64,000 nt of DNA from positions 1-64,000 of the IMG/VR virus record IMGVR_UViG_3300047546_002006; one strand, written 5' to 3'. The position numbers and the translations under genes are program-made. Every line of letters begins with the position of its first letter. Position 1 is the first letter of the stretch. This DNA is from a virus. Below, piece by piece: positions 353 to 50,063 of the stretch. The notes beneath the pieces were generated by a model. That model was not told the DNA's origin, made no database searches, and saw only the letters and a list, made by a program, of their open reading frames with translations.

Positions 353-503
353 CAGCACCCTCCAGCTCGGCGGCAATAGCGAGGAGTTGATGGCGGGTTA
401 CGCGGCGCTGGATCTCATAAGCCCTGGGTGCGCCAGGCACAAAATCACTGTTTTGTTCTTCCGGCACCACCTGATCCGCAGCAGCACGCAGGGCGGCGGC
501 GAT
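212..503. repeat. 42-bp exact direct repeat (212-253 and 462-503)
   Basis: cggcaccacctgatccgcagcagcacgcagggcggcggcgat twice. Confidence 0.95.
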
Positions 504-2839: not shown

Positions 2840-2925
2840 TGGTAGGGACAGAGAGACTTGAACTCTCACAGCCAATGGCTTACGGATTTTAAGTCCGTTG
2901 CGTCTACCGATTCCGCCATGTCCCC
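2840..2925 (-). tRNA. trnL: tRNA-Leu(UAA), intronless, CCA encoded
   Basis: GGGGACA/TGTCCCT acceptor, CT-TAA-AA anticodon loop, long variable arm, GTTCAAGTC T-loop, ACCA end. Confidence 0.96.
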
Positions 2926-6595: not shown

Positions 6596-6619
6596 GAGTT
6601 GAGTTGCAATGGGAATTTG

Positions 6620-8611: not shown

Positions 8612-9074
8612 GGAGTTCTTTGGGTTGTGTGTTAGCAGTAGTACGGGCGCTCCTGCGGGTACGGCTTGGCGTATCCGTTGGAGAAGGTAACAGACCATGC
8701 GTCCCAACCGAGGTTGTCACGCTGTGGTCCGTAGGTTTCTGTTGCTTCTGCTTCAAGCTTGATTGCTTCACGGATGGCTTGCTTCTTGGAGAAGACACAG
8801 ACCGTTTTGACGGGCCATCCTTGCTGGTAGTACCAACCTCCTTCTTCTGGTCCACCGTACCTGCTGTCGCATTCGTAGACACAAATGGTGGTTGGTTCTT
8901 GGTCTTCAAAGGTACAGTGCAGGTTGTACCTTGAGATCCAACGGCGGGCTGGTGCAGTGTCAATAGACATTTGATGAAATCTCCAATGAGTGTGATTGTG
9001 ATGCTGATGCAGACAATGCATAGGATGATTGGATCTTCATCCCATACATTCTTGGTTTCAGTCATGGTAGTCAT
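8580..9074 (-). CDS. possible overprinted membrane-anchored protein
   Basis: hydrophobic N-terminus fills 8970-9058 gap; basic low-complexity tail overlaps 8632-8970. Confidence 0.4.
   Translation of the reverse strand: MTTMTETKNVWDEDPIILCIVCISITITLIGDFIKCLLTLHQPAVGSQGTTCTVPLKTKNQPPFVSTNATAGTVDQKKEVGTTSKDGPSKRSVSSPRSKPSVKQSSLKQKQQKPTDHSVTTSVGTHGLLPSPTDTPSRTRRSARTTANTQPKELRAKPTGFAQA
8632..8970 (-). CDS. hypothetical protein
   Basis: VYECDSRYGGPEEGGWYY..YPQERPYYC. Confidence 0.75.
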   Translation of the reverse strand: MSIDTAPARRWISRYNLHCTFEDQEPTTICVYECDSRYGGPEEGGWYYQQGWPVKTVCVFSKKQAIREAIKLEAEATETYGPQRDNLGWDAWSVTFSNGYAKPYPQERPYYC

Positions 9075-9261
9075 GAGCATACCTCTCGTTGTAGTGGTCA
9101 CATGCGTAGCGTTCTTCATTTGATATCTCATCATTGAAGACGCCTGTCCAACCGTCTTGTTCTGCCTCACGCATGGCTTCTTCTAATTCGTATACACGAT
9201 CAGCCATGGCATCGAGGTAATTAGCATTGCGTTGTTCGTCAATGAAGTCAGAGTCTCTCAT
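9058..9261 (-). CDS. hypothetical acidic protein
   Basis: CAACTCAACC-ATG leader. Confidence 0.7.
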   Translation of the reverse strand: MRDSDFIDEQRNANYLDAMADRVYELEEAMREAEQDGWTGVFNDEISNEERYACDHYNERYAHDYHD

Positions 9262-9281
9262 GGTTGAGTTGCAATGGTGTA

Positions 9282-9310
9282 GTCTGCGTTTATAGGATGC
9301 GCAGCCCCCT
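9282..9310 (-). ncRNA. pseudoknot leader element, divergent copy
   Basis: AGGG-gg-CTGCG-ca-TCCT-ataaa-CGCAG. Confidence 0.4.
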
Positions 9311-9342
9311 GATAATATAAATAATTATTGGTTAACAAATAA

Positions 9343-9906
9343 ATGCCTGTGCCAGTTACTAAATTTCAAGATTTGCTAAATGCGTTTACCAAAAATCCTG
9401 AATACTTTACGCCTGGTTACACACAGGGATCTCCATTGTATAAAGGTGCACCTGGTCAGATGTTGAACGCATTTAAGTCCTTTGTCCCCGGACAAGGCGG
9501 CATGTTAACACGCGCAGATGAAACAGGTATGTTTGGCATTTCGCCTTTGAGTGGACAAATGACATTAAAATCTAGTACCGGCTGGGGCTTTAATGCTAAT
9601 CCTGTAACTAAATCAATAGGGTTTGATAAAGGTAGTTTTGCAGTTGGCGGTTCTTTCAATAAGTATTCACCTAGTGCATACATAAATTATGGTCCAGTTA
9701 ATATACAAGGTTCTTTAGGCTTTGATCCAAGTATTCAAATGAATATTAATACTAATGCCAGTAAAGACTTTATTGAACCAACAATGATGCAAGAGTTTCT
9801 TGCTGGTGATACAGTGCCACAACAATCAGATCCAACTGCAAGAGAAGAGTTGGAACAACAAATTAATCAATATCGCAATTCAAATCCAACCTGGTACAGA
9901 CCATAG
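9343..9906 (+). CDS. hypothetical protein, opposite strand to the early operon
   Basis: 187-aa ORF with AT-rich leader. Confidence 0.7.
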   Translation: MPVPVTKFQDLLNAFTKNPEYFTPGYTQGSPLYKGAPGQMLNAFKSFVPGQGGMLTRADETGMFGISPLSGQMTLKSSTGWGFNANPVTKSIGFDKGSFAVGGSFNKYSPSAYINYGPVNIQGSLGFDPSIQMNINTNASKDFIEPTMMQEFLAGDTVPQQSDPTAREELEQQINQYRNSNPTWYRP

Positions 9907-10058
9907 GATTGATTGCAACGATAAATCTGTTGTTGTTGTGTGCAATAATAAATACCATTTTGGGATTGATAAAGAAAATGCATGCCATCACTTAATATGA
10001 TTCCACCAACACCAAGGTATTGCTGTAAGCATGCAAATGTTGTGCAAATAAAGTTCAT
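9867..10058 (-). CDS. hypothetical protein
   Basis: start trimmed to MNFICT after pseudoknot. Confidence 0.5.
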   Translation of the reverse strand: MNFICTTFACLQQYLGVGGIILSDGMHFLYQSQNGIYYCTQQQQIYRCNQSYGLYQVGFELRY

Positions 10059-10079
10059 AGTTAGACCAAATAAAAACAA

Positions 10080-10108
10080 TGAGCAGTTTAACGTCATACT
10101 CAGGACGG
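10080..10108 (-). ncRNA. H-type pseudoknot leader element, copy 2
   Basis: single difference from copy 1 turns C-G into U-G in stem 2. Confidence 0.65.
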
Positions 10109-10157
10109 CAATAGTACCACCCCAGAAAAGGGTGGTATCACTCCATGAAGGGGTAGT

Positions 10158-10595
10158 TCATACAGTGATGTGACGCCAGGCAATGCCACGTGCAATGTTG
10201 CCAATGGCACAGCCTGTCACACTGTATGCTTTACCGATCTCTTCATATGCTTTCGTCTTACTTGAATACTTACTCATGATGTCTGGATCGTTGACCATCA
10301 TCTTGATGTCACGAACATCAGACGGAGTAAGTTTTGGTGTGTAGCCAGTGTAACGAACATGTGTAGTACCCACTCCACCCACAGGCTTAAGCCTGGGTCC
10401 ATCTCCAGTTACTTGCTTTGTCACCACTGCAGCCGGTGCTGCTGGTGGCGTAATGGAGAGGGGAGTGGTTTTAAGTGGGAACCCAAGTGTCACTGATGTG
10501 CCGTCTTTGACAACGGAGATCGTGACCTTGCCATCACGCGTGATGACAGATACGTGATCTGGGTGTTGAACGTCGAGTTGGCTGAGTGCTTCCAT
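10158..10595 (-). CDS. C-terminal HTH DNA-binding protein
   Basis: KLTPSDVRDIK..EIGKAYSVTGCAIGNIARGIAWRHI. Confidence 0.7.
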   Translation of the reverse strand: MEALSQLDVQHPDHVSVITRDGKVTISVVKDGTSVTLGFPLKTTPLSITPPAAPAAVVTKQVTGDGPRLKPVGGVGTTHVRYTGYTPKLTPSDVRDIKMMVNDPDIMSKYSSKTKAYEEIGKAYSVTGCAIGNIARGIAWRHITV

Positions 10596-10692
10596 TGAGA
10601 TGAGATGGTCTGAGTTGATGGATGCAAAGCAAGAATAGCTGGTACGTACAAGGATGCAAGTACCAGCCGTAGCGTTTGGCTGACGTAGGACA

Positions 10693-10920
10693 CTAGCCGT
10701 GTGGTATGAAGTCAGAGTCGTTGAGGAGCTGATGAACTGACAAGCAGTCTTCAGCAATCTCCTCCTTGCTACAACCAACCCAGTCGTCAGTCTGGTCCTC
10801 AATCACCTCGCAGCCAATGTCTTCGAGTTGATCTGAGAACTTAGACCATGTTGGTGCGTTGCCCCAGACATGGGCATAACGACCGGATGCGTCAGCGACT
10901 AACGCGATGTAGTTGTTCAT
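10693..10920 (-). CDS. hypothetical protein
   Basis: start trimmed to MNNYIAL. Confidence 0.7.
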   Translation of the reverse strand: MNNYIALVADASGRYAHVWGNAPTWSKFSDQLEDIGCEVIEDQTDDWVGCSKEEIAEDCLSVHQLLNDSDFIPHG

Positions 10921-11098
10921 GGTCAGGTGAGGATTGAGGTGATGTGATATCAATGCCAAGCATGGCACCGATAGTGATTGAACTGATGGCAATGGCAATG
11001 ACACCAATGAATAGATTCCACCGTCGAGTCTTATGAGACTCACCGTAAGAATCAAGGTGCATGAACCTGCCCTTGCCAAGAGGAACGATGTGTTTCAT
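10892..11098 (-). CDS. small membrane protein
   Basis: MKHIVPLG..LFIGVIAIAISSITIGAMLGI. Confidence 0.6.
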   Translation of the reverse strand: MKHIVPLGKGRFMHLDSYGESHKTRRWNLFIGVIAIAISSITIGAMLGIDITSPQSSPDHEQLHRVSR

Positions 11099-11099
11099 A

Positions 11100-11363
11100 T
11101 CAGAGTGTGTTGAGAATGTATCGAACGCAGACCAAAGGTTCTGGTTCGTAGTTCGGGGGCAGTTCTTCATAACAGAACCATTGCCCCTTGATGTCAATGT
11201 CCATGCATTCTGTAAACGATGCTAAATGAAAAGCATTTGGACCCTTGGTGCACCAAACGATATAAATAACGTTAGGTTCACACAATAAATAATAATCATC
11301 TTCCTTAATGTTGAACCGCTTGAGTGCGTCTTGTATCTCTTGATGATCTGTTGTCAATGCCAT
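11100..11363 (-). CDS. hypothetical protein, paralog of 11443-11805
   Basis: DHQEI..FNIKEDDYY..IKGQW..RY. Confidence 0.7.
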   Translation of the reverse strand: MALTTDHQEIQDALKRFNIKEDDYYLLCEPNVIYIVWCTKGPNAFHLASFTECMDIDIKGQWFCYEELPPNYEPEPLVCVRYILNTL

Positions 11364-11387
11364 GGTTGAGTTGAGATGTTGGGTGGA

Positions 11388-11445
11388 TGCAGGATGTTGA
11401 GTCCTGCAGAAACCCATCATTGCTGATGGGAATGTGCAGAAATCA
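11388..11445 (-). ncRNA. family A bistable intergenic element
   Basis: TGATTTCTGCA..hairpin..TGCAGGACTCAacaTCCTGCA. Confidence 0.7.
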
Positions 11446-11805
11446 GCTAAACGGACCTTCAGGATCACCAATAGAACCTGTTCCAGTGCCATCAATAAAA
11501 TAACGGCATTTAACGTGCTTCTGTCTTTTCAGCCAATCAATAATTTCTTGATAAATCAAAAAATCTGATTCGTCATAATCCATATGACACCACTTGCCTT
11601 TAATCTCTAAATAAACATTGTCAATTTCACAAGGTAAATCTTGGTAATAATTAAAAACGTCTGGTTGTCCAATCCAATACATATGTGCTGAAATCTGTTT
11701 GCCAGAATTTTCAGTCTTCACAGCAAAATAAACATCATCAATAGTGATGTTCATAATTTCAAAAACCCGTTTAATGTCTTGATAATCAAAAGTAAGTTCC
11801 ATCAT
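11443..11805 (-). CDS. hypothetical protein, paralog of 11100-11363
   Basis: DYQDI..MNITIDDVY..IKGKW..RY. Confidence 0.7.
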   Translation of the reverse strand: MMELTFDYQDIKRVFEIMNITIDDVYFAVKTENSGKQISAHMYWIGQPDVFNYYQDLPCEIDNVYLEIKGKWCHMDYDESDFLIYQEIIDWLKRQKHVKCRYFIDGTGTGSIGDPEGPFS

Positions 11806-11829
11806 GGTGTAGATAATTAAGTAATGACA

Positions 11830-11890
11830 GCAGGATATTGAGTCCTGCAAGAAAGGCCCTGGTAACCCAAGGCCCTTGATGCAGAAGTCA
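11830..11890 (-). ncRNA. family A bistable intergenic element
   Basis: TGACTTCTGCA..hairpin..TGCAGGACTCAataTCCTGC. Confidence 0.7.
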
Positions 11891-12289
11891 GAATGGAATT
11901 TCTTCCAGTGTGGGCACAGCTGGTGCTGATGCCATAGCCACTGGTATTGCAGAAGCAGGAGGCAGATATTGCGGTGCGGCACCAATGATAGCCCTCACAT
12001 TCGTGAGGTTGATCTGTGGGTAACGCAATGCAATAAGCTGACCATCCTTGATGTAATGGCTGCGGATCGTATTGATACGAACCTCCCACTGCGTGAGGAT
12101 AAGTTCTTGTCCTACGACCAGGGTGCCATTACGAAATGCTGTAAGCAAACCATTGGCATTATTGAATTTGATGCGGCAACCATTACCAGACTTGTCGTTG
12201 ACAGCCATGGTAACTGCAAGGAACTCGCTACCTTCATGGGTAGCAACTTCCAAGTAGCAGATGTTGCCGACAATCGCTTGAGTAAACAT
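11888..12289 (-). CDS. ssb: single-stranded DNA-binding protein (OB fold)
   Basis: IVGNI, VTMAVN, Pro/Ala linker, C-terminal EEIPF (SSB-Ct). Confidence 0.7.
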   Translation of the reverse strand: MFTQAIVGNICYLEVATHEGSEFLAVTMAVNDKSGNGCRIKFNNANGLLTAFRNGTLVVGQELILTQWEVRINTIRSHYIKDGQLIALRYPQINLTNVRAIIGAAPQYLPPASAIPVAMASAPAVPTLEEIPF

Positions 12290-12312
12290 GTTAGTAATGA
12301 GTTGAATTGAGG

Positions 12313-12391
12313 TACAGGATATTGAGTCCTGCAGAAAACCCACCGTCCGATACGAATTCGTATCAAACGGAAGGGTTAAGTGCAAGAGTCA
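12313..12391 (-). ncRNA. family A bistable intergenic element with 16-bp palindrome in apical stem
   Basis: TGACTCTTGCA..GATACGAATTCGTATC..TGCAGGACTCAataTCCTGTA. Confidence 0.7.
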
Positions 12392-12628
12392 GTCTGCGTT
12401 ACGGTACTCCCACTTGAGTAGTTCTCGGTTGAGATCTACCTTCCGTTGGAGCACCACGCAGAATGGCATCAGGTCTTGAAACTCACGCATGCCGTCCTGC
12501 CATTGGAAGAACAAGTCGAGTGCAGCTTGACGCTGGCTCTCAAGTTCTGTGTCAATGACAGGGGCATCCCTCCTGGCAAGCAGGCGGGCATCTTGCGTGA
12601 GCAGATATTCAACAGCTTTAGGAGTCAT
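12389..12628 (-). CDS. hypothetical protein
   Basis: ORF between two family A elements. Confidence 0.75.
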   Translation of the reverse strand: MTPKAVEYLLTQDARLLARRDAPVIDTELESQRQAALDLFFQWQDGMREFQDLMPFCVVLQRKVDLNRELLKWEYRNAD

Positions 12629-12665
12629 GGTTGATTCCAGTTGGTGTGAATTGAGCTGAGTTTGA

Positions 12666-12717
12666 TGCAGACTTGAGGTCTGCAGAGAAGGCCCGTAGGC
12701 CCTCAGTGCAAACGTCA
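12666..12717 (-). ncRNA. family A bistable intergenic element
   Basis: TGACGTTTGCA..hairpin..TGCAGACCTCAaGTCTGCA. Confidence 0.7.
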
Positions 12718-12903
12718 GATATTAATCTTGGGTGTAATAACGAATGCCATATCGTTCGGCATGACGAGTGCCGCTGCCCGAACCCTGAGTTCGTTCAGCT
12801 TCTCGGATGCCTGTGCCTTGGTAGGCACCTTGGCATTCTCTACTGCCGATGCGGCAAGCCGCATGATATTGGCAGTGTTCTTCCTGATGTTGAGTGCAGT
12901 CAT
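12715..12903 (-). CDS. hypothetical protein
   Basis: start trimmed to MTALNI. Confidence 0.7.
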   Translation of the reverse strand: MTALNIRKNTANIMRLAASAVENAKVPTKAQASEKLNELRVRAAALVMPNDMAFVITPKINI

Positions 12904-12926
12904 AGTATGGTGTTGAGTTGAGTAAA

Positions 12927-12984
12927 TGCCACGGGATTGTGGCAATAGTTGTGTGGGGGATTCGATCCCCCGGCTCACGCCTGG
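12927..12984 (-). ncRNA. family B T-loop/TATTGCC element
   Basis: GGC-GTGA-GCC, GGGGGA-TCGAA-TCCCCC, ACTATT-GCCAC..GTGGC. Confidence 0.55.
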
Positions 12985-13179
12985 TCAAATGACCATCACA
13001 ACATCGTCGGCTTCCATCATCTCCTGGAAGGACATGATCTGCACGTCATGCGTGCCTTGGATGCCGTCGTTAAGTTCAGGTGAGTTGAGTTCGAAGTCGT
13101 ATTGTGCAGCTTCGATAAGCGCTTCTTCCCAAAGGAAGGAAACGCCATGCTGCACACCATTGATCACGATGTAATACAT
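12985..13179 (-). CDS. hypothetical protein
   Basis: start trimmed to MYYIVI. Confidence 0.7.
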   Translation of the reverse strand: MYYIVINGVQHGVSFLWEEALIEAAQYDFELNSPELNDGIQGTHDVQIMSFQEMMEADDVVMVI

Positions 13180-13200
13180 GAGTCGAGTTGTAAGTTGAAC

Positions 13201-13257
13201 GCAGACTTGAGGTCTGCAGTAACCCCTGGCTTTCACCAGGGGAAAGTGCAAACGTCA
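13201..13257 (-). ncRNA. family A bistable intergenic element
   Basis: TGACGTTTGCA..CCCCTGG/CCAGGGG..TGCAGACCTCAaGTCTGC. Confidence 0.7.
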
Positions 13258-13440
13258 GTTAGTCTTGTAACCATTATCTGCACACCAGTCCATATGGATC
13301 TGATGCGCAGCTTTAGGCCATGCGTGATCACGGCATTGCTTGGCAGCAGCTTGGTCCAGCATGTGTGCACCAATCTGGCTAGCAATGCCTGCACCGATGG
13401 CAGTAACAATGACAAGGATAAAGAACTGATTCTTGGTCAT
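13255..13440 (-). CDS. small membrane-anchored protein
   Basis: N-terminal TM; QCRDHAWP..HMDWCADNGY. Confidence 0.7.
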   Translation of the reverse strand: MTKNQFFILVIVTAIGAGIASQIGAHMLDQAAAKQCRDHAWPKAAHQIHMDWCADNGYKTN

Positions 13441-13458
13441 AAGTTGAGTTGAATGTAA

Positions 13459-13521
13459 GCCACACTCAGTGTGTGGCAATAACTGGGCCAGGGTTTGCAC
13501 CTGGCCTCCCGCTTTAACGGA
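13459..13521 (-). ncRNA. family B T-loop/TATTGCC element
   Basis: GGCCAGG-TGCAAAC-CCTGGCC-cagttatt-GCCACAC..GTGTGGC. Confidence 0.6.
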
Positions 13522-13767
13522 TCAGCTTGCAAGCTTCAGCACCTGAATGCTGAAATTAGGAAACAGATGAAGGCGATAATCGCAGTCACGCTTACCGCAC
13601 TCACATGGATTGGAATCCCAATCCTCCTGTTCCTTAACAATGGCTTCTGCTTTAAGCAATGCCATTGCATTCTCCGCACTCTGACGAGTGGGATAAAGAG
13701 TGTCCTGGTGAATCCAACGATAATAAGAATCGTCTGGAGTAGAAACCTGGACGGCAAAGAGTTCCAC
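13522..13767 (-). CDS. hypothetical protein
   Basis: GTG start with AGGAG SD; CECxxxxC. Confidence 0.7.
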   Translation of the reverse strand: MELFAVQVSTPDDSYYRWIHQDTLYPTRQSAENAMALLKAEAIVKEQEDWDSNPCECGKRDCDYRLHLFPNFSIQVLKLAS

Positions 13768-13788
13768 AAGGAATCTCCTGTTGTGCGG

Positions 13789-13851
13789 TGCCTATCTCCG
13801 CTGGAGGCAATAACCAGAGCCAGGCATTGCACCTGGCATGGGAGCTATCAC
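13789..13851 (-). ncRNA. family B T-loop/TATTGCC element
   Basis: GCCAGG-TGCAATG-CCTGGC-tctggttatt-GCCT..AGGC. Confidence 0.6.
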
Positions 13852-14031
13852 TCACCTGGCCTGGAGTTGACGCACGAACTTGCGTGCGTTCTCCACTGAC
13901 ATTGTGGTACTGCAGTCATAACCCCTCTGGCCCTTGCGGACCAGCTTGGTGATGCGTGCCATACCTACTTCCTTGTTAACAACAAAGCAGTACGTGGCCT
14001 GCTTGGTTGCAACAGTGCAGAAAATGTCCAT
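13852..14031 (-). CDS. first gene of early operon, hypothetical (59 aa, not in ORF track)
   Basis: MDIFCTVATKQATY...RQLQAR; CA-rich leader. Confidence 0.65.
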   Translation of the reverse strand: MDIFCTVATKQATYCFVVNKEVGMARITKLVRKGQRGYDCSTTMSVENARKFVRQLQAR

Positions 14032-14060
14032 GATGAATCGAATGCGATGGAGTTGAATGC

Positions 14061-14086
14061 GCTACGTTTAACGCCCAGCTTGGCGT
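14061..14086 (-). ncRNA. pseudoknot leader element, covarying copy
   Basis: ACGCC-aaGCTG-GGCGT-taaacg-TAGC. Confidence 0.45.
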
Positions 14087-14126
14087 GATTAATCCCGAGT
14101 TGTCAGGTCGGAATTAACAAACTGTA

Positions 14127-14135
14127 ATTATGGCA
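14127..14135 (-). promoter_or_regulatory. candidate extended -10 early promoter
   Basis: TG-c-CATAAT about 40 nt upstream of the first pseudoknot. Confidence 0.35.
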
Positions 14136-14185
14136 ACTGTTCTGTATGAACAAACGTGCGGCGTGGGGCGCGACACTCCCATGTG

Positions 14186-14205
14186 CGATACGAATTCGTA
14201 TCAAA
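14186..14205. repeat. 20-bp exact repeat of 12348-12367 containing a perfect 16-bp palindrome
   Basis: cGATACGAATTCGTATCaaa. Confidence 0.9.
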
Positions 14206-14493
14206 AAACAGTATAAAAGTAGGTAGAAGTACCTAAAATCCTCACTAAATTGTCGCTCGCTCCTCCGGGCGAACGCAGTGAGCATTCCTTAGCCTTCTCT
14301 TAACGAACGAAGTGAGTTCTAACCCCCACTTACTCTTACCCATCACACATTTCTTTTTTTCTTCCCACATTTCGTGTCGCGTAGGTGTGTGGAGAAGCCC
14401 CAGAAATTTTATTTTCCTTTTTAGGCCCTATACGAGGGCCGGTTTTTAGCAAAAAGTGTCGGCATATCAAGGGTTTTGCCCTAATTTTTAGAC

Positions 14494-14519
14494 AAAAAAG
14501 CCAGGATTTTACTCCTGGC
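14494..14519 (-). terminator. intrinsic terminator
   Basis: GCCAGGA-gtaaaa-TCCTGGC-TTTTTT downstream of 14545-14757. Confidence 0.8.
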
Positions 14520-14544
14520 GGTAATTTAAATTGTTTTTATGTAA

Positions 14545-14757
14545 TTAATTTTTATTTGCATCTGCCCATTTCATGGCAGCAGTAGCAGCTTTTGCCCTGC
14601 TATCTAAATCAGGACGTTCTTTAGACAGCTCTTCCTTGGCACCAATAATAAAATTGGTGACTTCTAGATTATTTGCGCCTGCTTTTTCCATTTGTTCTGC
14701 GGAATCAGCAATTGCGTGTAAAGCAAGACCGCGCTCCATGCGATTACGTGGGTGCAT
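14545..14757 (-). CDS. hypothetical protein
   Basis: 70-aa ORF followed by terminator. Confidence 0.65.
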   Translation of the reverse strand: MHPRNRMERGLALHAIADSAEQMEKAGANNLEVTNFIIGAKEELSKERPDLDSRAKAATAAMKWADANKN

Positions 14758-14878
14758 TGTCCTTTTTTTTGCGTAAACAACTTGTTTTCAATAAAGATAG
14801 TCTATAGCATGGCGTTTTTTCTTTATTTATCCACAGTAGAATTCAACTATTAATGAATACGTAAATAAAAGGTATCTA

Positions 14879-17683
14879 ATGGCGCTAGCACCTGCTGATT
14901 TTTACGCTTATAGCCGCGCTACTGGTACGCCAGTTCCAGAAGATCCAGAAGAACGAGCGCAGATGGCGCCTGAGGTGCTTGAATTCCGCCGTAATCAGCT
15001 CAAAGCTCCACAACAAGAATCAAACCCGCTGGCTGCCCTTGGGACTGTAGCTGCAGGTTTAGGTTTATTGGCCGGTGGCTTGTATGCTGCCAAGCGATTT
15101 GGTACTGGTCGTGCTGCTGTAGCCCCTTCTAAGGTGCCAAACCTGACGCAGCAGGGTATTTCTGATGTTAGTGCCGTTGCAAAACAACAAAATGCTGAAC
15201 GTGTACAACGTGAGTTGAGTAAACAACGTCCACAAGGCGTGGTGCAGACAGATCTTGGTTTTGTTGATGAATTACTCAATGATCCAAGTTTACTTTCGCA
15301 AGTTGAGTACCAAGAATTTACCGAAGGTTTAACTGGGCCAGCCCTATCTCAACTTCGTGGCGCTGAATCTAGAGCACGTAATGAGTATCGCGGTTTGGTA
15401 ACAGAGATTGGTGATCAGATTATTGCAGAAGAACGTGCCAAAGTCCAATCACAAACTTTAAGTGCACTGGAGTCTGGCGAAGACCAGATGACAGGTCGTG
15501 TCAAAATGCAACTGTCGCGTAATGAAGATTTAGATTTAAGTCAAATTGAAACGCTTGAAAATATTGCAGAAGAAAATAATGCGCTAATGCGAGAGCAAGC
15601 AGATCCCTCTCAAATGCAAGGATATGTGCCAGACCAAGCAATTAACCAAGCAGCATCTCAGTTACCAGATGGCCCTCCCCTGGACCAAGCGGAAGGAAAA
15701 CGTGTTTTTGATTTGAGTGGGGGCAAATCAAAAATTACTGGAAATATTGTTACGCAAGGTTCAAAACAATATTTTACGGCTTCTCCTAATGTTTTAAATC
15801 AAGGACAAGCTGATGACGCATTAGTGCAAGAAGCAATACGTCATTTGCGAGCTCAAGAAATTGATACTGATTTTGATTATTCGCTAGAAAACAAAATTCA
15901 AGCTGCACAAGTTAACGATCGTATTCAAAGAGCGCAAGCATTACAAAACCAAGCAAATCAAATCCTTTCTGAAATTCAAGCAGAAGCACAACCAGTTACA
16001 CAACAACTATCTCCTGAAGAATTTGCTTCAGCTTTTAATAAGCAATACCGAGAAGAGTTAAATGCTTCATTGCAACTTGTTGATAATGCACGCCAACGTG
16101 CTGAGCAACGTTCTGCACAAACAGAAGCAACAGGCGAAGATCTCGAATCCCTGCTTTTAGGTGAACCTGGAACTATTGAAACCACCATGCAAGGCAAAGC
16201 CCTCCGTGGCGGGAAGCCAAACATTACTGGTGATATTGTTTATCAAAATGATGCAGGGAATTTTGTTACTGCAGATGCCGGATTAAAAACACGTTTAAAT
16301 CAAGGTCAACAATATGAACAACGTGCACGCCGTTTAAATCAACTAAGGTCTGCTTCAGATGAAGAATTAACAGGGTTGTTCTTCCAGGGTCAGCAAGCTA
16401 TTGCAAATAAACAACCCATGACGCAATTAGATTTAGATACAATGAGATTTGCGTCTGAAATTTTGCGCACCAGGGCATTAAAAGAAGTAGAACCTACCCG
16501 TTTGCAACTAGACGCATTAGAACGATCAAAAGCTTCGATTGCAAAATCCCAAGAGATTTTACAAGCTGCTAGAAATTTACGGCCAACCGTTTCCCCTGGA
16601 CCTGCGCAAGATGTTGCACGTTCTATGGAAACACTGCGTCGTGCAATGATTGTTGATCCTTCGGAACCGCTGCCTAGCTATCCATCTGTACAACAACTCA
16701 GGACAGGTTTTATTGATGCAGGTGATTACGCTGAATTAGGGCCAATTGTTGGTGCTCCTGATGTTTATACCGGAGCTGCGGCAGAAGCTGCTGGACCTGT
16801 GATTTTTACTGGCAAAAGCAAAGCTAATACTGTTATTAAACAACCAGATATTACCGGATCCGTCACTACGCCAGTTGGCAAATATTTAACACAAGATAAT
16901 CCAGATGTCCTTGGCACAGTTTATAGAGTTGCCGGTACTCCAGCCAATCGTGCAATTTCGGCACAGGTGGAAGCAAATGCACAAGCATTTTTAGCAGATG
17001 CTCTTACTGGTGGTTTACAACAAAAAACACAACGCGTTCCAGAACCTTATCGAACCCCAGGTACTTATGGGGTTCAACAACTTAATCTTTTAACTCCTCC
17101 TCTTTCTGAAAAAGGTTTCTCCCAGAATCCTCTCGGCCTTACAGGTTCTGCGCCAAGTCAACGTACTTTGTATGCTCAGTATCAACCTGGCCGCAGTGCT
17201 TCAACTCCTTTAAGTCCATTTATTGGCGAGATGCTTGGTGGCACGGTAAATGTTGTACCACCTTCTACTGCTGGTGCTGCAATGCGGCGTGATATTGGCG
17301 CTCCACCCGGCAGTATTGATTTGACGCGGCGTGGCGAACGTGGACGTTACTTCAGCCGCTATCCTGAGCAACCTTTTGTTACGGGTATGGAGCCAGCTCC
17401 AATTGGACCCATCGTTCCTTCACCAGGTTTATCTCGCGTTGGTGGCATGCAACAAAAAACAATTAAAGGTGCCGGTAATTTGCCGATCACTCAATTGACT
17501 ACACAAGGACAAAAGATTTCATATCCACACATGGATCCCCTAGTTAAAGCAACTGGTTTCCGTGGAGAGCAAATTACAAATGTTCCACGTTATGGTATTA
17601 ACCCAGGAGCTGAAGATTGGCGCACGGATTTAATGCGTTCAGAGTTTAGGCGCAGCGGTCCTCTTCGCAGGTATCAAGCGTAA
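14879..17683 (+). CDS. large Gln/Pro-rich putative internal virion protein
   Basis: 934 aa, one N-proximal hydrophobic Gly/Ala helix; TAGAAT promoter at 14837. Confidence 0.6.
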   Translation: MALAPADFYAYSRATGTPVPEDPEERAQMAPEVLEFRRNQLKAPQQESNPLAALGTVAAGLGLLAGGLYAAKRFGTGRAAVAPSKVPNLTQQGISDVSAVAKQQNAERVQRELSKQRPQGVVQTDLGFVDELLNDPSLLSQVEYQEFTEGLTGPALSQLRGAESRARNEYRGLVTEIGDQIIAEERAKVQSQTLSALESGEDQMTGRVKMQLSRNEDLDLSQIETLENIAEENNALMREQADPSQMQGYVPDQAINQAASQLPDGPPLDQAEGKRVFDLSGGKSKITGNIVTQGSKQYFTASPNVLNQGQADDALVQEAIRHLRAQEIDTDFDYSLENKIQAAQVNDRIQRAQALQNQANQILSEIQAEAQPVTQQLSPEEFASAFNKQYREELNASLQLVDNARQRAEQRSAQTEATGEDLESLLLGEPGTIETTMQGKALRGGKPNITGDIVYQNDAGNFVTADAGLKTRLNQGQQYEQRARRLNQLRSASDEELTGLFFQGQQAIANKQPMTQLDLDTMRFASEILRTRALKEVEPTRLQLDALERSKASIAKSQEILQAARNLRPTVSPGPAQDVARSMETLRRAMIVDPSEPLPSYPSVQQLRTGFIDAGDYAELGPIVGAPDVYTGAAAEAAGPVIFTGKSKANTVIKQPDITGSVTTPVGKYLTQDNPDVLGTVYRVAGTPANRAISAQVEANAQAFLADALTGGLQQKTQRVPEPYRTPGTYGVQQLNLLTPPLSEKGFSQNPLGLTGSAPSQRTLYAQYQPGRSASTPLSPFIGEMLGGTVNVVPPSTAGAAMRRDIGAPPGSIDLTRRGERGRYFSRYPEQPFVTGMEPAPIGPIVPSPGLSRVGGMQQKTIKGAGNLPITQLTTQGQKISYPHMDPLVKATGFRGEQITNVPRYGINPGAEDWRTDLMRSEFRRSGPLRRYQA

Positions 17684-39620: not shown

Positions 39621-42497
39621 ATGTTGCTTCTTACGTCGACTGTCGATATCGTTCAGATCGTAGCGACAAGTGCAACACAATTAGAAATCCATGCTTCTTA
39701 TGCAGACAATGCATCAGGAGTGGTTACCGCTGGGCGCAAAGACACTATTGTTACAACTGCTACAACCGCTACAATCGTTAGTTCTCCTGCTCAAAATATT
39801 CAACGCAATGTACGTACGATTGTTGTACGCAATGATGATCCATCAACTTCCAACACTATAAAAGTAGAGCATTACGACGGCACCAATACGATTACACTTT
39901 GGTATGGTGCTTTAGCAGCAGGAGAAGAAGCAATACTTAGCCAGGAAGGCACATGGCATGTCTACGATATTACTGGGTTAGAAAAAAACTATAATGTAAT
40001 TGGACCGACTGGTCCAACAGGTCCTTCTGGTGGGCCTACTGGTCCACAAGGGGCAACAGGCCCACTAGGTCCTACTGGACCCACAGGCCCAACAGGTGCA
40101 ACAGGCCCACAAGGTGCAACAGGACCGCAAGGGACAACTGGTCCTATCGGCCCTTCTGGTGCGACAGGCGTACAAGGTGCAACCGGTGTTCAAGGCAGTA
40201 CAGGTATACAAGGCCCCTCGGGTGCCACTGGAGTACAAGGTGCCACAGGCATTCAAGGTCCAACAGGAACACAAGGTTCGACTGGCCCTCAAGGTACAAC
40301 AGGCCCCACGGGATTACAGGGAACTACTGGTCCTACAGGCGTACAAGGTGCCACGGGTCCACAAGGTGCTACTGGAATTGAGGGTCCAACTGGGGTAACA
40401 GGCGTACAAGGTGCCACAGGTCCGCAGGGTACAACAGGTCCCACTGGAGCAACTGGTGTTACAGGCGTTCAAGGAGCCACAGGTGTACAAGGAGCTACTG
40501 GTCCGCAGGGAACCACTGGCCCCACTGGAGTACAAGGTGTCACAGGACCGATTGGCCCCACAGGCGCTACTGGTATTCAAGGGCCTACGGGAGCCACGGG
40601 TCCGCAAGGATTTTCGTCTAGTGTTTTTAAATATCAAGCCAAAACAACGGCAACCAGTGGATATCCAGGGGACGGTTTTATCTTATGGAATAACGCCACC
40701 CAAACCAGTGCGTCAACTATTCTTGTTAGTCATTTAACATTTGACAATGTTGATGCAGATATTTTTCTTTCTCAATTAGAGCAAACAGAGCAAATTACGA
40801 TTCAAGATCAAAGCGCAAGTGCCAATTTTCAAGTATGGACAATTAATGGTACGCCAACCAACACAAACCCTGGCGCCGCTAATAGTTATTGGTCTTATCC
40901 TGTAACACTTTCAAGCTCCGGTGGAACAGGAACAACAAACTTTGCAAATAACCTCAATATTTTTATTGCTTTAACAAGTGGTGTTGATGGTGCCACTGGT
41001 GCCACTGGTGTTGCTGGCCCAACAGGTGCTACAGGTCCACAGGGCGTCACTGGTGCTACAGGTATTGGAATCACTGGTGCCACAGGTGCGACAGGGGTAC
41101 AAGGTGTTCAAGGCACTACAGGTCCCACTGGGGCAACTGGTGTTGCCGGCCCAACAGGCGCTACGGGTCCGCAAGGCACTACAGGTCCCACTGGAGTGCA
41201 AGGTATAGAAGGACCAACCGGAGCCACAGGCGTACAAGGTGCTACTGGTATTCAAGGCACTACAGGTCCCACAGGCGTACAAGGTGCCACTGGTATTCAA
41301 GGCCCCAGCGGTCCCACAGGCGCTACTGGAGTACAAGGTGCCACAGGTATTCAAGGTGCCACTGGTGCTACTGGAGTACAAGGAATCACAGGACCTACAG
41401 GTGCCACTGGTGTACAAGGTGCCACTGGTGCAACAGGTGTACAAGGAATTACTGGACCCACCGGTGCCACTGGCGTTGAAGGACCCACTGGTGCAACAGG
41501 AGTGCAAGGGCCAACAGGCGCTACAGGTGTGCAAGGTGCTACGGGTGCCACTGGTGTTGCGACCATCGGCGGCAGTAATGGCCAGGTTCAGTACAATAAC
41601 TCTGGAGCATTTGGTGGTGCCGCTGACGTAACTATCGAAAGCGGCGATCTTGTATTACTAAACCAAGCTTCTATTACATCTCCAACTGGCACGGGCACAA
41701 AGCTTGGAGCGCAATCAATTGGCGGCAGGTCACTTTTGGTCGCTAAAAATAATTCATCTTCAGCGGCTTATGCAATACAGCCTACGCTTGCGCAAAATCG
41801 AGTTAATATGTGGATTGGTATCGTCAATAACTCAACACTCGGCACTTTTGGTACAACTGCTTTTACTGCAACAGGCACAAACACCGCTACAGCGGTAGCA
41901 ACAACTAATCGTTTTACAAGAACTCAAAGACTTGAATATCTTGTTACTGTTGCTGCTGCAACCGCAGTTGCGGGCTGGCGAATTGTAAACAACGTTTGGA
42001 GTATTGGTGGAACAGCAAGTGATGAAGGTGGATTCTATTTTATTTGCCGCTGGGGTCCAGCAACAGGCGTTGCAACAACAACAAACCGTGCATTCGTTGG
42101 CATGACTAACTCTACAGTGGCGCCAACAGACGTTGAACCAAGTTCCATTACAAACATCGTTGGCATGGGCTGGGATGCTGCAGATGCAAACATACAAATG
42201 ATGCATCGTGGTACTGGCGCCGTTACAAAAATTGATCTTGGCGCTAGTTTTGCTGTGCCGACAACAGATCGAACAAAGGTATATGAGTTGGCAATGTTCT
42301 CGCCTCCGGGATCAACACAATCGGTTTCTTACTTAGTAACAGACTTGGTCACCGGATCCACAGCAAGTGGCAGCATTACAACAAACATGCCTACTACCAC
42401 CACGCTCTTGTCTCCACGAGGGTGGATGAGCGTTGGAGGCACAAGTAGTGTGATTGGCATTGCTTTTATGAGTTGCTATATTGAAACAGATTATTGA
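39621..42497 (+). CDS. collagen-like fibre/spike protein
   Basis: two long Gly-X-Y tracts (GPT, GAT, GVQ) between globular domains. Confidence 0.9.
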
Positions 42498-42544: not shown

Positions 42545-44161
42545 ATGCGGCTGCATTTGGTTGGTATTTTTCATACCCTTGCAAAAAGCAGTTATTCACA
42601 TTGTGCTTTTACAGGAAAAGCCCTTCGTTTCCCGCGCATGATGCAAGCGCAAGGATATGAAGTCATTGAGTACAGTAATGAAGGAAGCGAAGCAAATGCA
42701 ACTGAGCATGTCACCATGCTTACGTCATACGAATTTGACGAGCTATATGGACAACGAAAAGACACTGAATTCTATGGTGATAATGCAACGGTAGGTAGTA
42801 CCGGTCATCAAAAATTTGAAGAACGCCTAATCGTTGAAATGCGCAAACGTCTGGAGCCAGGCGATATTATCTGTCATCCATTTGGACACGCACATCAAAT
42901 CCTGATGGATAAATTTCCAGATTACAAGCATGTAGAAACTGGAATAGGCTATCCAACATTAATGCCTAATAGTTTTCGCATCTTTGAGTCATACGCCTGG
43001 ATGCACTATCATCAAGGCAAAGAAAACAGGCAGGGACGTAACTATGAATGGGTTGTGCCCAACTATTTTGATATTGAAGAATGGGAGCCAAATTATGAGC
43101 CTGGACAGTATTTAGCTTTCCTCGGTCGTATTTGTTCCGTCAAGGGAATGGATACAATTTTGGAAATAGCTAAATATAGTCCATGGCCCATTGTCATTCA
43201 TGGACAAGGTGACCCCATGCCCTGGAGCCATCCCAACATTCATTATGGAGGCCCAATTTCTGGTAAAGCACGTTCTGATTTTCTGCGTAATGCACGTGCG
43301 GCTTTAATGCCCACAAACTTTACAGAACCATTTGGCGGCAGTGGAGTAGAAGCAATGCTGTGCGGTACACCATTGATTGCGGTTGATTACGGGGCATTTA
43401 CAGAAACCATATCTAATGGCATCACTGGATTTAGATGTCATACCCTCCAGGAATGGCTTGATGCCATTGTTGATGTTGATCTATTAGATCGAAGAGTAGT
43501 TGCAGCTAATGCACGCAGTCGATACAGCCTGGATGCATGCGGTAAACAATATGATCAAATCTTTAGAACGCTAGATAATTTGCAACACAAGGGATGGTAT
43601 GAATTACGCGGCATTGAAACGCAAGCCATTGATTACTCTTTTTTAGATCAAGAAGAAAAGCCATTTGCACAACGTCTTGTTCCTTATCTTGTTGATACTT
43701 TTAAGCCAGATACTGTACTTGATCTTGGCTGCGGCCCAGGTACATATGTCAATGTATTTAATGACTTAGGCGTTGACTGCATTGGTTACGACACAGACGT
43801 GCGTGTCAAAGGTATGCCAAATATTTATTGCAAGAGCCTACATGAAGCAGAAGAGAAAGCAGACCTTGTTCTGTGTATGGAGGTAGCAGAACACATTGAT
43901 TCTTCTCAGAATGAATCAATTGTTCAAGTTATGTATGACGCTTTAAACCCAGGGGGAGTTTTAATTTGGACCGCTGCAAAACCAGGTCAAGGCGGCGTAG
44001 GACACATTAATTGCCAAGAAAAAACATATTGGGAAAAACTATTAAATGCAACTGGTTTAGTTCGTGATACTGTTGAAGAACAAAAAACCATCGAATATAT
44101 CCGCAATGGATATCATATGGGTTGGTTTTTACAAAACCTTATGATCTATAGAAAACCATGA
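42545..44161 (+). CDS. GT4 glycosyltransferase fused to class I SAM methyltransferase
   Basis: FLGRICSVKG, EPFGGSGVEAMLCGTP; VLDLGCGPG, EVAEHI, PGQGGVGHIN. Confidence 0.9.
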   Translation: MRLHLVGIFHTLAKSSYSHCAFTGKALRFPRMMQAQGYEVIEYSNEGSEANATEHVTMLTSYEFDELYGQRKDTEFYGDNATVGSTGHQKFEERLIVEMRKRLEPGDIICHPFGHAHQILMDKFPDYKHVETGIGYPTLMPNSFRIFESYAWMHYHQGKENRQGRNYEWVVPNYFDIEEWEPNYEPGQYLAFLGRICSVKGMDTILEIAKYSPWPIVIHGQGDPMPWSHPNIHYGGPISGKARSDFLRNARAALMPTNFTEPFGGSGVEAMLCGTPLIAVDYGAFTETISNGITGFRCHTLQEWLDAIVDVDLLDRRVVAANARSRYSLDACGKQYDQIFRTLDNLQHKGWYELRGIETQAIDYSFLDQEEKPFAQRLVPYLVDTFKPDTVLDLGCGPGTYVNVFNDLGVDCIGYDTDVRVKGMPNIYCKSLHEAEEKADLVLCMEVAEHIDSSQNESIVQVMYDALNPGGVLIWTAAKPGQGGVGHINCQEKTYWEKLLNATGLVRDTVEEQKTIEYIRNGYHMGWFLQNLMIYRKP

Positions 44162-49041: not shown

Positions 49042-49076
49042 ATTGTGTATGATTGGAAGTAATTATTGTTACTTCC

Positions 49077-49736
49077 ATGTCGGATTTTTCGTCTGCCATT
49101 AACATCATTCGTAAATACGAAGGATTTAACGAAAAGGCATACCCAGATCCGAACACAGGAGGAGACCCATATACCATCGGGTATGGAAGCCAATTCTATC
49201 CCGATGGTTCTCCTGTTAAAAAGGGACAATGCTGCAGTAAACAAAAGGCACTGGAGTATTTGTTCCATGAGGTCAATGTAATTGAAACTCAGCTTTTGAA
49301 ATTGAATTTGGGGTTAGATGATTGTATGCGTCAAGCCCTAATTTCTTTTATTCACTCGATTGGCTGGGAGCCTTTTTTGTACAGCCATGTTATTGATGCT
49401 ATTGAGCACGAAGATTTTTGCGGCGCCACAGAAGAAATGGGCAGATGGATTTTCAATGAAGACCATAAGGTTGTCGGTGGATTACTTGATCGCCGTAGGG
49501 AAGAAATTAGTTTATTCCTCCAGGAAGTTGACGCCAATCCCTGGTCCTCAACAGAAGTTTTGTTGACAGCATTTCGCAATTACACAGCAGCACCACACGA
49601 AGTACGCGCTATCAGAGGTTTAGAAGAAAGCATCAGTCCTTATGTCCTATCAAAATTTGCCAATGATTTTTGTATTGATGACAATCCATGGTCAGATTTT
49701 AGTACTGATGACGCAGATCTAGTATTTGGCGGCTAG
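49077..49736 (+). CDS. GH24 lysozyme
   Basis: IRKYEG..AYPD..TIGYG, ALISF, GLLDRRREE. Confidence 0.88.
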   Translation: MSDFSSAINIIRKYEGFNEKAYPDPNTGGDPYTIGYGSQFYPDGSPVKKGQCCSKQKALEYLFHEVNVIETQLLKLNLGLDDCMRQALISFIHSIGWEPFLYSHVIDAIEHEDFCGATEEMGRWIFNEDHKVVGGLLDRRREEISLFLQEVDANPWSSTEVLLTAFRNYTAAPHEVRAIRGLEESISPYVLSKFANDFCIDDNPWSDFSTDDADLVFGG

Positions 49737-49760
49737 GCTTAGAATAATTGCATTGAGAAC

Positions 49761-50063
49761 ATGCAGAGCGGGATGGAGAGGTCAGTTGAGCCACGGGAAT
49801 TTGAACTCCCCCTAGAATTGCAGTTCTCAATGCGTAAAGCAGAACTTGCTGCGCAAGAAATGACATGGGAGGAGTTGTACTGTGCACTTCTCAATCTGTA
49901 CCACCAGCGCCTTATGGAATGGTACGCTATTAAATCCTTGATGGAAGATGAGAATATTTCTATTGATTTTGATATTCCAACTGAGATTGAGTTAGCAGAA
50001 CTCGCCGCCGCCTGCATTGACGACGACGAGGATGAAAACGAAGACGATCTTCAGCCTTTTTGA
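49761..50063 (+). CDS. nblA: NblA-like phycobilisome degradation protein with acidic tail
   Basis: ELPLELQFSMR..AQEMTWEELYCALLNLYHQRL..IKSLM. Confidence 0.72.
   Translation: MQSGMERSVEPREFELPLELQFSMRKAELAAQEMTWEELYCALLNLYHQRLMEWYAIKSLMEDENISIDFDIPTEIELAELAAACIDDDEDENEDDLQPF

Follow-up and report, generated by a model that had tools for sequence, protein, structure and literature searches.

Five small genes in the early region of the viral genome IMGVR_UViG_3300047546_002006 end in a stop codon that is also the first part of an RNA helix, and the spacers that follow can be folded in two ways that exclude one another. What do such spacers do on the phage transcript, and why is the stop codon part of one of the two folds? 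We analyzed the first 64 kb of this 79,218-bp genome (positions 1 to 64,000; hereafter the window), where the minus strand carries, from 14.0 kb to about 2.9 kb, a long series of small open reading frames (ORFs) of no known function. In the phage collection this virus has a single relative, Synechococcus phage S-EIVl (locus L001), and the two are syntenic in the early region. We regard the repeated spacers, here called family A, as a cis-acting RNA element of the early polycistronic transcript in S-EIVl-like cyanophages. Weighing the analyses below, we give a probability of roughly 0.4 to the reading that the element may act as an intercistronic processing and stability site of early mRNA.

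Five copies of a three-armed element

An earlier note on this DNA had proposed five copies on the minus strand, and all of them lie where it placed them, each following a small early gene (Table 1). Every copy has an 11-nt left arm that opens with the UGA stop of the gene before it, then a variable GC hairpin, a middle arm reading TGCAGNNCTCA, and a right arm 5–7 nt further on. In state 1 the left arm is paired with the middle arm, and in state 2 the middle arm is paired with the right arm. The exact motif CTGCAGRMCTCAA is confined to family A copies, with four exact matches and a fifth that carries one mismatch. Additionally, a covariance model of the family (see below) found these five copies and no others in the whole 79-kb genome. 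A candidate sixth copy on the plus strand, with arms containing GAAC/GUUC/GAAC, is not found by the covariance model and overlaps a possible ORF start; we list it as an unconfirmed look-alike. It lies between an ORF at 49053–49736 and a possible ORF start at 49761 or 49830.

When the minus strand was folded as RNA, state 1 was obtained in all five copies. Three base pairs between UGA and UCA are followed by a 1x1 pyrimidine mismatch, 7 bp, an internal loop of 2x2 to 3x3, and an apical GC hairpin of 7–12 bp, which is often closed by a UNCG or GNRA tetraloop; the whole hairpin has about 20 layers. Fold energies range from -23.6 to -37.6 kcal/mol (z-scores -4.5 to -6.6), and none of 200 shuffled sequences was as stable. 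With the left arm blocked in silico, five of five copies refolded into the apical hairpin plus a state-2 hairpin formed by the middle and right arms. This second hairpin has 6–7 bp and stands 12–32 nt ahead of the next start region, which is itself unstructured. In nearly all copies state 1 has the lowest energy, with a median margin over state 2 of only 3.6 kcal/mol, and in S-EIVl itself the minimum-energy fold is state 2.

Both folds covary in relatives

Forty-nine IMG/VR loci were retrieved with the two flanking proteins, and a structural pattern scan, filtered on all three structural criteria, gave 45 further unique copies. The covariance model, built on the apex and state 2, matched 174 copies in 68 sources at E <= 0.01. 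Nearly all of these sources are related viral contigs with several copies each, and the strong matches in loci for which the gene orientation was set are all co-oriented with the genes.

The evidence for state 1 comes from alignments that were not fitted to it. RNAalifold returned state 1 from an unfitted MAFFT alignment, in which two variable pairs of the outer stem had changed on both sides, with pairing kept, in 12/32 and 10/32 sequences. Over 133 distinct copies in the model-based alignment, the outer helix of state 1 is 96.1% paired, and both sides have changed at 7 of 10 pairs. None of 500 shuffles attained the covariation score of state 1 as a whole, and sliding the partner by one column lowered the pairing from 95.9% to below 50%. 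In the same alignment the state-2 helix is 89.6% paired and shows double changes at five of seven pairs; these state-2 figures lean toward state 2, because the alignment was fitted to state 2 and not to state 1. A MAFFT alignment of the state-2 region alone left the right arms out of register, and the model-based alignment was therefore used for state 2. When each sequence type was reduced to one representative, the observed pairing was reached by only 8 of 5040 partner permutations, for each of the two states.

The changes also link all three arms. Left, middle and right arms read GAC/GUC/GAC, GGC/GCC/GGC, CGC/GCG/CGC and CUC/GGG/CCC in different copies, and the UGCA boxes change jointly in divergent copies, e.g., to UGUA/UACA/UGUA. 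Since the boxes switch in a compensatory manner, pairing and not sequence is the conserved property, and these three-way changes speak against sequence-specific recognition of "invariant" UGCA or PstI-like CUGCAG boxes. The stop codon takes part as well, as it covaries with its partner (UGA:UCA in 113 copies, UGA:UUA in 12 and UAA:UUA in 3). The right arm is not a mere echo of the left. One and the same G of the middle arm forms a U.G wobble with the left arm in 43/133 copies, whereas its partner in the right arm is almost always C, with a G.U wobble in 2/132; where the left arm reads UCU or UUC the right arm reads UCC, and where the left arm reads GUU the right arm reads GUC. The right arm thus differs from the left at the wobble positions, which shows that it is maintained as a pairing partner and is not a decaying copy.

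Collectively, the family has two mutually exclusive helices, each supported by covariation, as is generally expected of a bistable RNA. The claim of the earlier note that two such pairings share a middle arm, with the stop codon inside state 1, is borne out by the relatives. The observation is statistically solid and extends across the S-EIVl-like lineage, sequence comparison establishes the structure, and we hold the fold and its bistability to be well supported, with little room for doubt. Some details had to be revised. The mismatch at position 4, described as an invariant Y-C, is indeed C.C or U.C in the window, but across the family it is a pyrimidine–pyrimidine mismatch in 122/131 copies and hence not invariant. 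For the state-2 stem, the pairing of middle and right arms is real, but the outermost U-A pair is often absent, so that the conserved stem has 6 bp.

A cmscan of positions 9000–16000 against Rfam 15 (E <= 1, permissive filters) gave no match. The earlier note had named a match to a described Rfam family as an outcome that would count against it, and its proposal stands in this respect; a known ribozyme or riboswitch was rejected as a candidate on the same result. Literature searches, including searches on S-EIVl, found no description of the element, which appears to be undescribed so far.

Readings at the level of transcription or DNA

The earlier note counted a U-rich tract as part of the consensus and considered attenuation; the former does not extend to high-GC relatives, and the latter is not supported. 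An intrinsic terminator or attenuator would end transcription at the apical hairpin and the U-rich tract, with the outer arms as modulators. In this phage the GC-hairpin apices are indeed followed by UUUCU-like tracts, and the apex of copy A3 passes a terminator scan, but it is the only one of the five copies that does. The U-tract is not conserved, as high-GC relatives have CUC or CCC in its place and yet retain the arms. Moreover, no alternative pairing disrupts the apical hairpin, which is untouched in either state, hence there is no antiterminator, and the middle arm is made only once the polymerase is beyond the U-tract. We therefore rate termination or attenuation as very improbable. Leader-peptide attenuators and the coat–replicase coupling of MS2 resemble family A in their mutually exclusive helices, between which the position of a ribosome could decide, but their output is a terminator or a masked start site, and neither changes between the family A states.

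A site that acts in DNA is an extremely improbable explanation. Here the element would serve as a recombination site that folds as a single strand, as attC does, or else as a promoter or an inverted repeat bound by a protein. The parallel, which the earlier note had drawn to integron attC sites, is one of layout: small ORFs are set apart by inverted repeats that are imperfect, vary in the centre and have an unpaired base, and that sit at junctions of gene presence and absence. For the mechanism, the parallel is not supported. Wobble pairs in the arms are strongly biased (276 G.U vs 19 A.C), which places the fold on the sense strand, most simply on the transcript, and the co-orientation of every strong copy with the genes points the same way. 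The arms covary rather than hold one recognition sequence, and family A has a third arm. The attC cores R''/R' (RYYYAAC / GTTRRRY) are not found in the elements, whose arms read UGAYNNNUGCA / UGCAGNNYUCA. Pfam and PHROG scans of 30 of the ORFs recognised no integrase, RNA polymerase or ribonuclease, and thus no phage-encoded RNase or RNA polymerase that could be the user of the element. A promoter scan found no promoter-like site within any element, and five sites in the region where 5.6 are expected by chance; downstream of the middle arm, no -10 box is conserved.

The stop codon and the terminating ribosome

The helix begins exactly at the stop codon in 123/133 distinct copies. Of 39 unique copies, about 33 have a left-arm UGA that really ends an ORF, with 65 or more open codons. 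The left arm is always 11 nt long and shows no insertions or deletions; the apex, by contrast, ranges from about 18 to 50 nt, and its few types reassort with those of the arms. Some copies have no stop codon in the left arm or no long upstream ORF (L002:3453, L042:1111 and L049:3898). The element can therefore occur without a ribosome terminating inside it, given that copy type L002/L003:3453 lacks a long upstream ORF.

These features bring in the main rival explanation, in which the ribosome that terminates at the UGA drives a switch with no obligatory cut. The ribosome would cover about 12 nt downstream, i.e., the left arm, and would free the middle arm for the right arm (state 2). Once it is gone, the left arm would re-invade from a toehold, the UCA of the state-2 loop. 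The share of time in state 2 would thus be a measure of how heavily the upstream gene is translated, and could set nuclease sensitivity, ribosome release or ribosome loading at the next cistron. The switch would account for the start of the helix at the stop, the covariation of the stop codon with its partner, and a fixed left arm that matches the downstream footprint of the ribosome beside an apex of variable length. State 1 is also weakened by wobbles and by the conserved Y.Y mismatch next to the stop, and the small median difference from state 2 suits a reversible switch. Terminating ribosomes are reported to stall at REP hairpins of E. coli that lie less than 15 nt from a stop codon, and such stalling near stops is in line with this explanation. 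The start at the stop, the covariation of the stop codon, the fixed left arm and the weakened state 1 are better explained by the switch than by processing.

The evidence on the next start site speaks against the switch. The next ATG lies 71–104 nt past the stop, behind a G-poor, CA-rich leader that has no Shine-Dalgarno sequence. The predicted accessibility of this start site is alike in both states (0.64 in the free fold vs 0.67 with the left arm blocked), which speaks against start-site unmasking and leaves classical translational coupling, another suggestion of the earlier note, unsupported. The obvious output of the switch is thus missing, and we could name no other output from sequence alone. 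The copies in which the left arm has no stop or no long upstream ORF likewise count against it. Weighing both sides, we consider a switch driven by the terminating ribosome rather unlikely. Its more specific form, in which each terminating ribosome would reversibly peel off the 11-nt left arm, so that the spacer reports upstream translation and sets nuclease sensitivity or ribosome hand-over for each cistron, seems unlikely too, and slightly more so. The two models are compatible, in that upstream translation could gate the cut.

Recoding by read-through, frameshift or bypass was rejected as well. Relative to the stop, the next ATG of 38 copies is in frame 0 in 14, in frame 1 in 9 and in frame 2 in 15, so there is no fixed frame relation, and the codons before the stop vary. 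As a separate observation on the start sites, CAACUCAAC or a close variant stands directly 5' of many early-gene ATGs (Table 1). It may be a signal for initiation that is independent of a Shine-Dalgarno sequence. CUCAA also forms the loop of the state-2 hairpin.

Processing and stability of the early mRNA

In the processing reading that we favour, the element would punctuate the operon mRNA. The earlier note had suggested an RNase III-like site with a downstream product that caps itself, and the anatomy of the element fits this. The structure from which the model starts is the ground state, in which the stop codon and the 8 nt behind it pair with the middle arm and stack on the very stable apical hairpin. 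A host double-strand-specific endonuclease of the RNase III family would cut state 1 and thereby part the neighbouring cistrons, and the apical hairpin would stay on the upstream piece as a barrier to 3' exonucleases. The downstream piece, having lost the left-arm partner, would refold to state 2. As the cut would deprive the middle arm of its partner, the state-2 hairpin would come to stand at the new 5' end of the downstream cistron, where it would shield the RNA from the 5'-end-dependent RNase E and RNase J. Such a model would explain both the selection on the two folds and the copy type that has no upstream ORF.

The closest precedent is found in phage T7. Its early RNase III sites are irregular hairpins of about 20 layers with an internal loop, and the cut leaves a protective 3' hairpin on the upstream mRNA. 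Family A hairpins are likewise irregular, span about two helical turns, contain an internal loop and lie between the cistrons of an early operon. Like T7 R0.3 to R1.3, they are repeated directly past the stops of small early genes in one long operon. The T7 sites differ in that they have no third arm, no alternative fold and an unpaired stop codon, and cleavage of family A is inferred. The host, a cyanobacterium, differs from that of T7 too, in having RNase J and several RNase III paralogues; the cyanobacterial set comprises RNase E, Mini-III, one to three RNase III genes and RNase J, which is a 5'-exonuclease (PMC10989914). Cyanophage infection has been reported to raise host RNase E (PMC3113571, PMC9692554). 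In the metatranscriptome run X20, contigs are 100% identical to early genes and none of them crosses an element, but these are low-depth assemblies that are unable to show RNA ends. Contigs also break at repeats and at strain junctions, and the X20 contigs are therefore no evidence for processing.

Several points weigh against processing. The cut, with the RNA ends that it would leave, is a proposal and not an observed event, and no phage RNase gene is recognisable among the 30 ORFs scanned. A plain processing site needs neither a helix that starts exactly at the stop nor covariation of the stop codon. Both the conserved mismatch and the many wobbles of the left arm make state 1 look deliberately weakened, which suits a one-way cut no better than a reversible switch. 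Additionally, the substrate rules of RNase III in picocyanobacteria are too poorly known to score the family A hairpins.

Gene gain and loss between copies

Copies of the element also mark places where genes come and go. A contig from a DNA-like metagenome run joins copy A1 to copy A2: the joint runs from 11396 to 11838, skips 441 nt with exactly the one gene between them, and has 12 letters common to both sides. This gene-loss joint looks like recombination between repeats. Among relatives, both the genes between equivalent elements and the apex types at equivalent positions differ, so that copies mark insertion and deletion junctions between close relatives, as in the PeSL cassettes of T4-type phages. 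The similarity of the copies lets them serve as junctions at which recombination adds or removes genes.

These findings might indicate that family A stabilises or insulates passively and at the same time serves as a recombination module, as PeSL cassettes or REP elements do. Only the long hairpin would then matter, as an exonuclease barrier and a repeat for gene shuffling, and the right arm would be a surviving direct repeat of the left arm. PeSLs are repeated intergenic stem-loops that flank small variable early ORFs, and recombination between them mediates insertions and deletions and explains gene gain and loss (PMC2839356, PMC4122927). However, a PeSL consists of an early promoter and a terminator stem-loop, and with no sigma-70-like promoter in the elements the promoter half is absent; the conserved trait of family A is its two-state pairing. 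The comparison with REP elements and BIMEs has similar limits. These are also repeated imperfect palindromes just past stops inside operons, and REPs stabilise upstream mRNA, but they are single hairpins found in both orientations and mobilised by RAYT transposases, while family A is strictly co-oriented and has three arms with the stop codon in a helix. Against this view stands the right arm, which carries compensatory changes with the middle arm over many sequence types and, being unlike the left arm at wobble positions, has been kept as a partner. A passive stabiliser is thus an improbable explanation, and the role as junctions more probably follows from the presence of repeats than being what they are primarily for.

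One apex deserves separate mention. The perfect 16-bp palindrome GATACGAATTCGTATC of copy A3 occurs again at 14187–14202, in the non-coding control region that precedes the early operon (two matches vs 0.13 expected). It fills the apex of equivalent elements in many relatives (Table 1), and an imperfect copy is found in the upstream region of S-EIVl. The palindrome may be an operator for a DNA-binding regulator.

Other features of the window

The leader after copy A1 is G-poor and CA-rich, and each of the other four copies is followed by an equivalent one. Multi-hairpin spacers of a second family, family B, lie among the same early genes. They likewise begin at a CUGA stop and are common to S-EIVl, and joints between family B copies are found in metagenome contigs (13527 to 13769 and 12947 to 13472). 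The early operon also contains a tRNA-Leu gene (anticodon UAA) amid protein-coding genes. The 30 ORFs scanned included a terminase, a primase/helicase, a thymidylate synthase, glycosyl- and methyltransferases and a ferritin-like protein. Elsewhere, a 958-aa ORF with long collagen-like Gly-X-Y repeats probably encodes a fibre protein and is followed by a fused glycosyltransferase-methyltransferase gene, and the GC-rich start of the window contains two perfect copies of a 42-nt direct repeat at a spacing of 250 nt.

Table 1. Positions of family A copies and of other features discussed in the text (window coordinates unless a locus or the genome is named; scores are those of the covariance model).
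Feature	Coordinates	Strand	Left arm; gene ended by its UGA	Apical hairpin	Middle arm	Right arm	Bits	Remarks
Copy A5	13200–13257	-	13257–13247 (UGACGUUUGCA); 61-aa gene 13255–13440	region 13246–13219	13218–13208	13206–13200	66.3	State-2 loop CUCAA 13211–13207
Copy A4	12666–12717	-	12717–12707; gene 12715–12903	UACG loop	12684–12674	12672–12666	65.1	
Copy A3	12313–12391	-	12391–12381; 79-aa gene 12389–12628	long, with 16-bp palindrome GATACGAATTCGTATC (12349–12364)	12333–12323	12319–12313	70.5	
Copy A2	11830–11890	-	11890–11880; 133-aa gene 11888–12289	11 bp	11849–11839	11835–11830	65.4	
Copy A1	11388–11445	-	11445–11435; 120-aa gene 11443–11805	GCAA loop	11408–11398	11394–11388	74.6	
Leader after A1	11363–11387	-						No Shine-Dalgarno sequence; contains CUCAACUCAAC; runs to next ATG
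CAACUCAAC sites	13443–13451, 12912–12920, 11365–11373, 9263–9271, 6598–6606; genome 77388–77396	- (window sites)						
GATACGAATTCGTATC in relatives	L034:4385–4477, L008:4235–4327, L151:411–501, L012:3894–3983, L079:3943–4038							
Look-alike (unconfirmed)	49754–49852	+	UGAGAACAUGCA		UGCAGUUCUCA	AGAACUUGC		
Family B spacers	12920–12992, 13452–13530, 13780–13860	-						
tRNA-Leu	2840–2925	-						
958-aa ORF	39621–42497	+						Probable fibre protein
Glycosyltransferase-methyltransferase	42545–44161							
Direct repeat, 42 nt	212–253 and 462–503							

Significance

Structured spacers between phage early genes are already known. For family A, sequence comparison supports two mutually exclusive folds in one spacer, one of which incorporates the stop codon; to our knowledge, three-way covariation of this kind is uncommon outside riboswitches and attenuators. 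The element is present in several copies per genome in a widespread, poorly understood and mostly freshwater cyanophage lineage, in which almost no early genes have a known function. It offers a handle on phage mRNA processing, stability or translation in hosts with a ribonuclease set unlike that of E. coli (PMC10989914). If the processing-and-capping model is true, family A would be a compact natural part for insulating cistrons in cyanobacterial operons. If instead the terminating ribosome drives the change of fold, the family would make up a new class of cyanophage riboregulator, one that sits between cistrons and senses translation.

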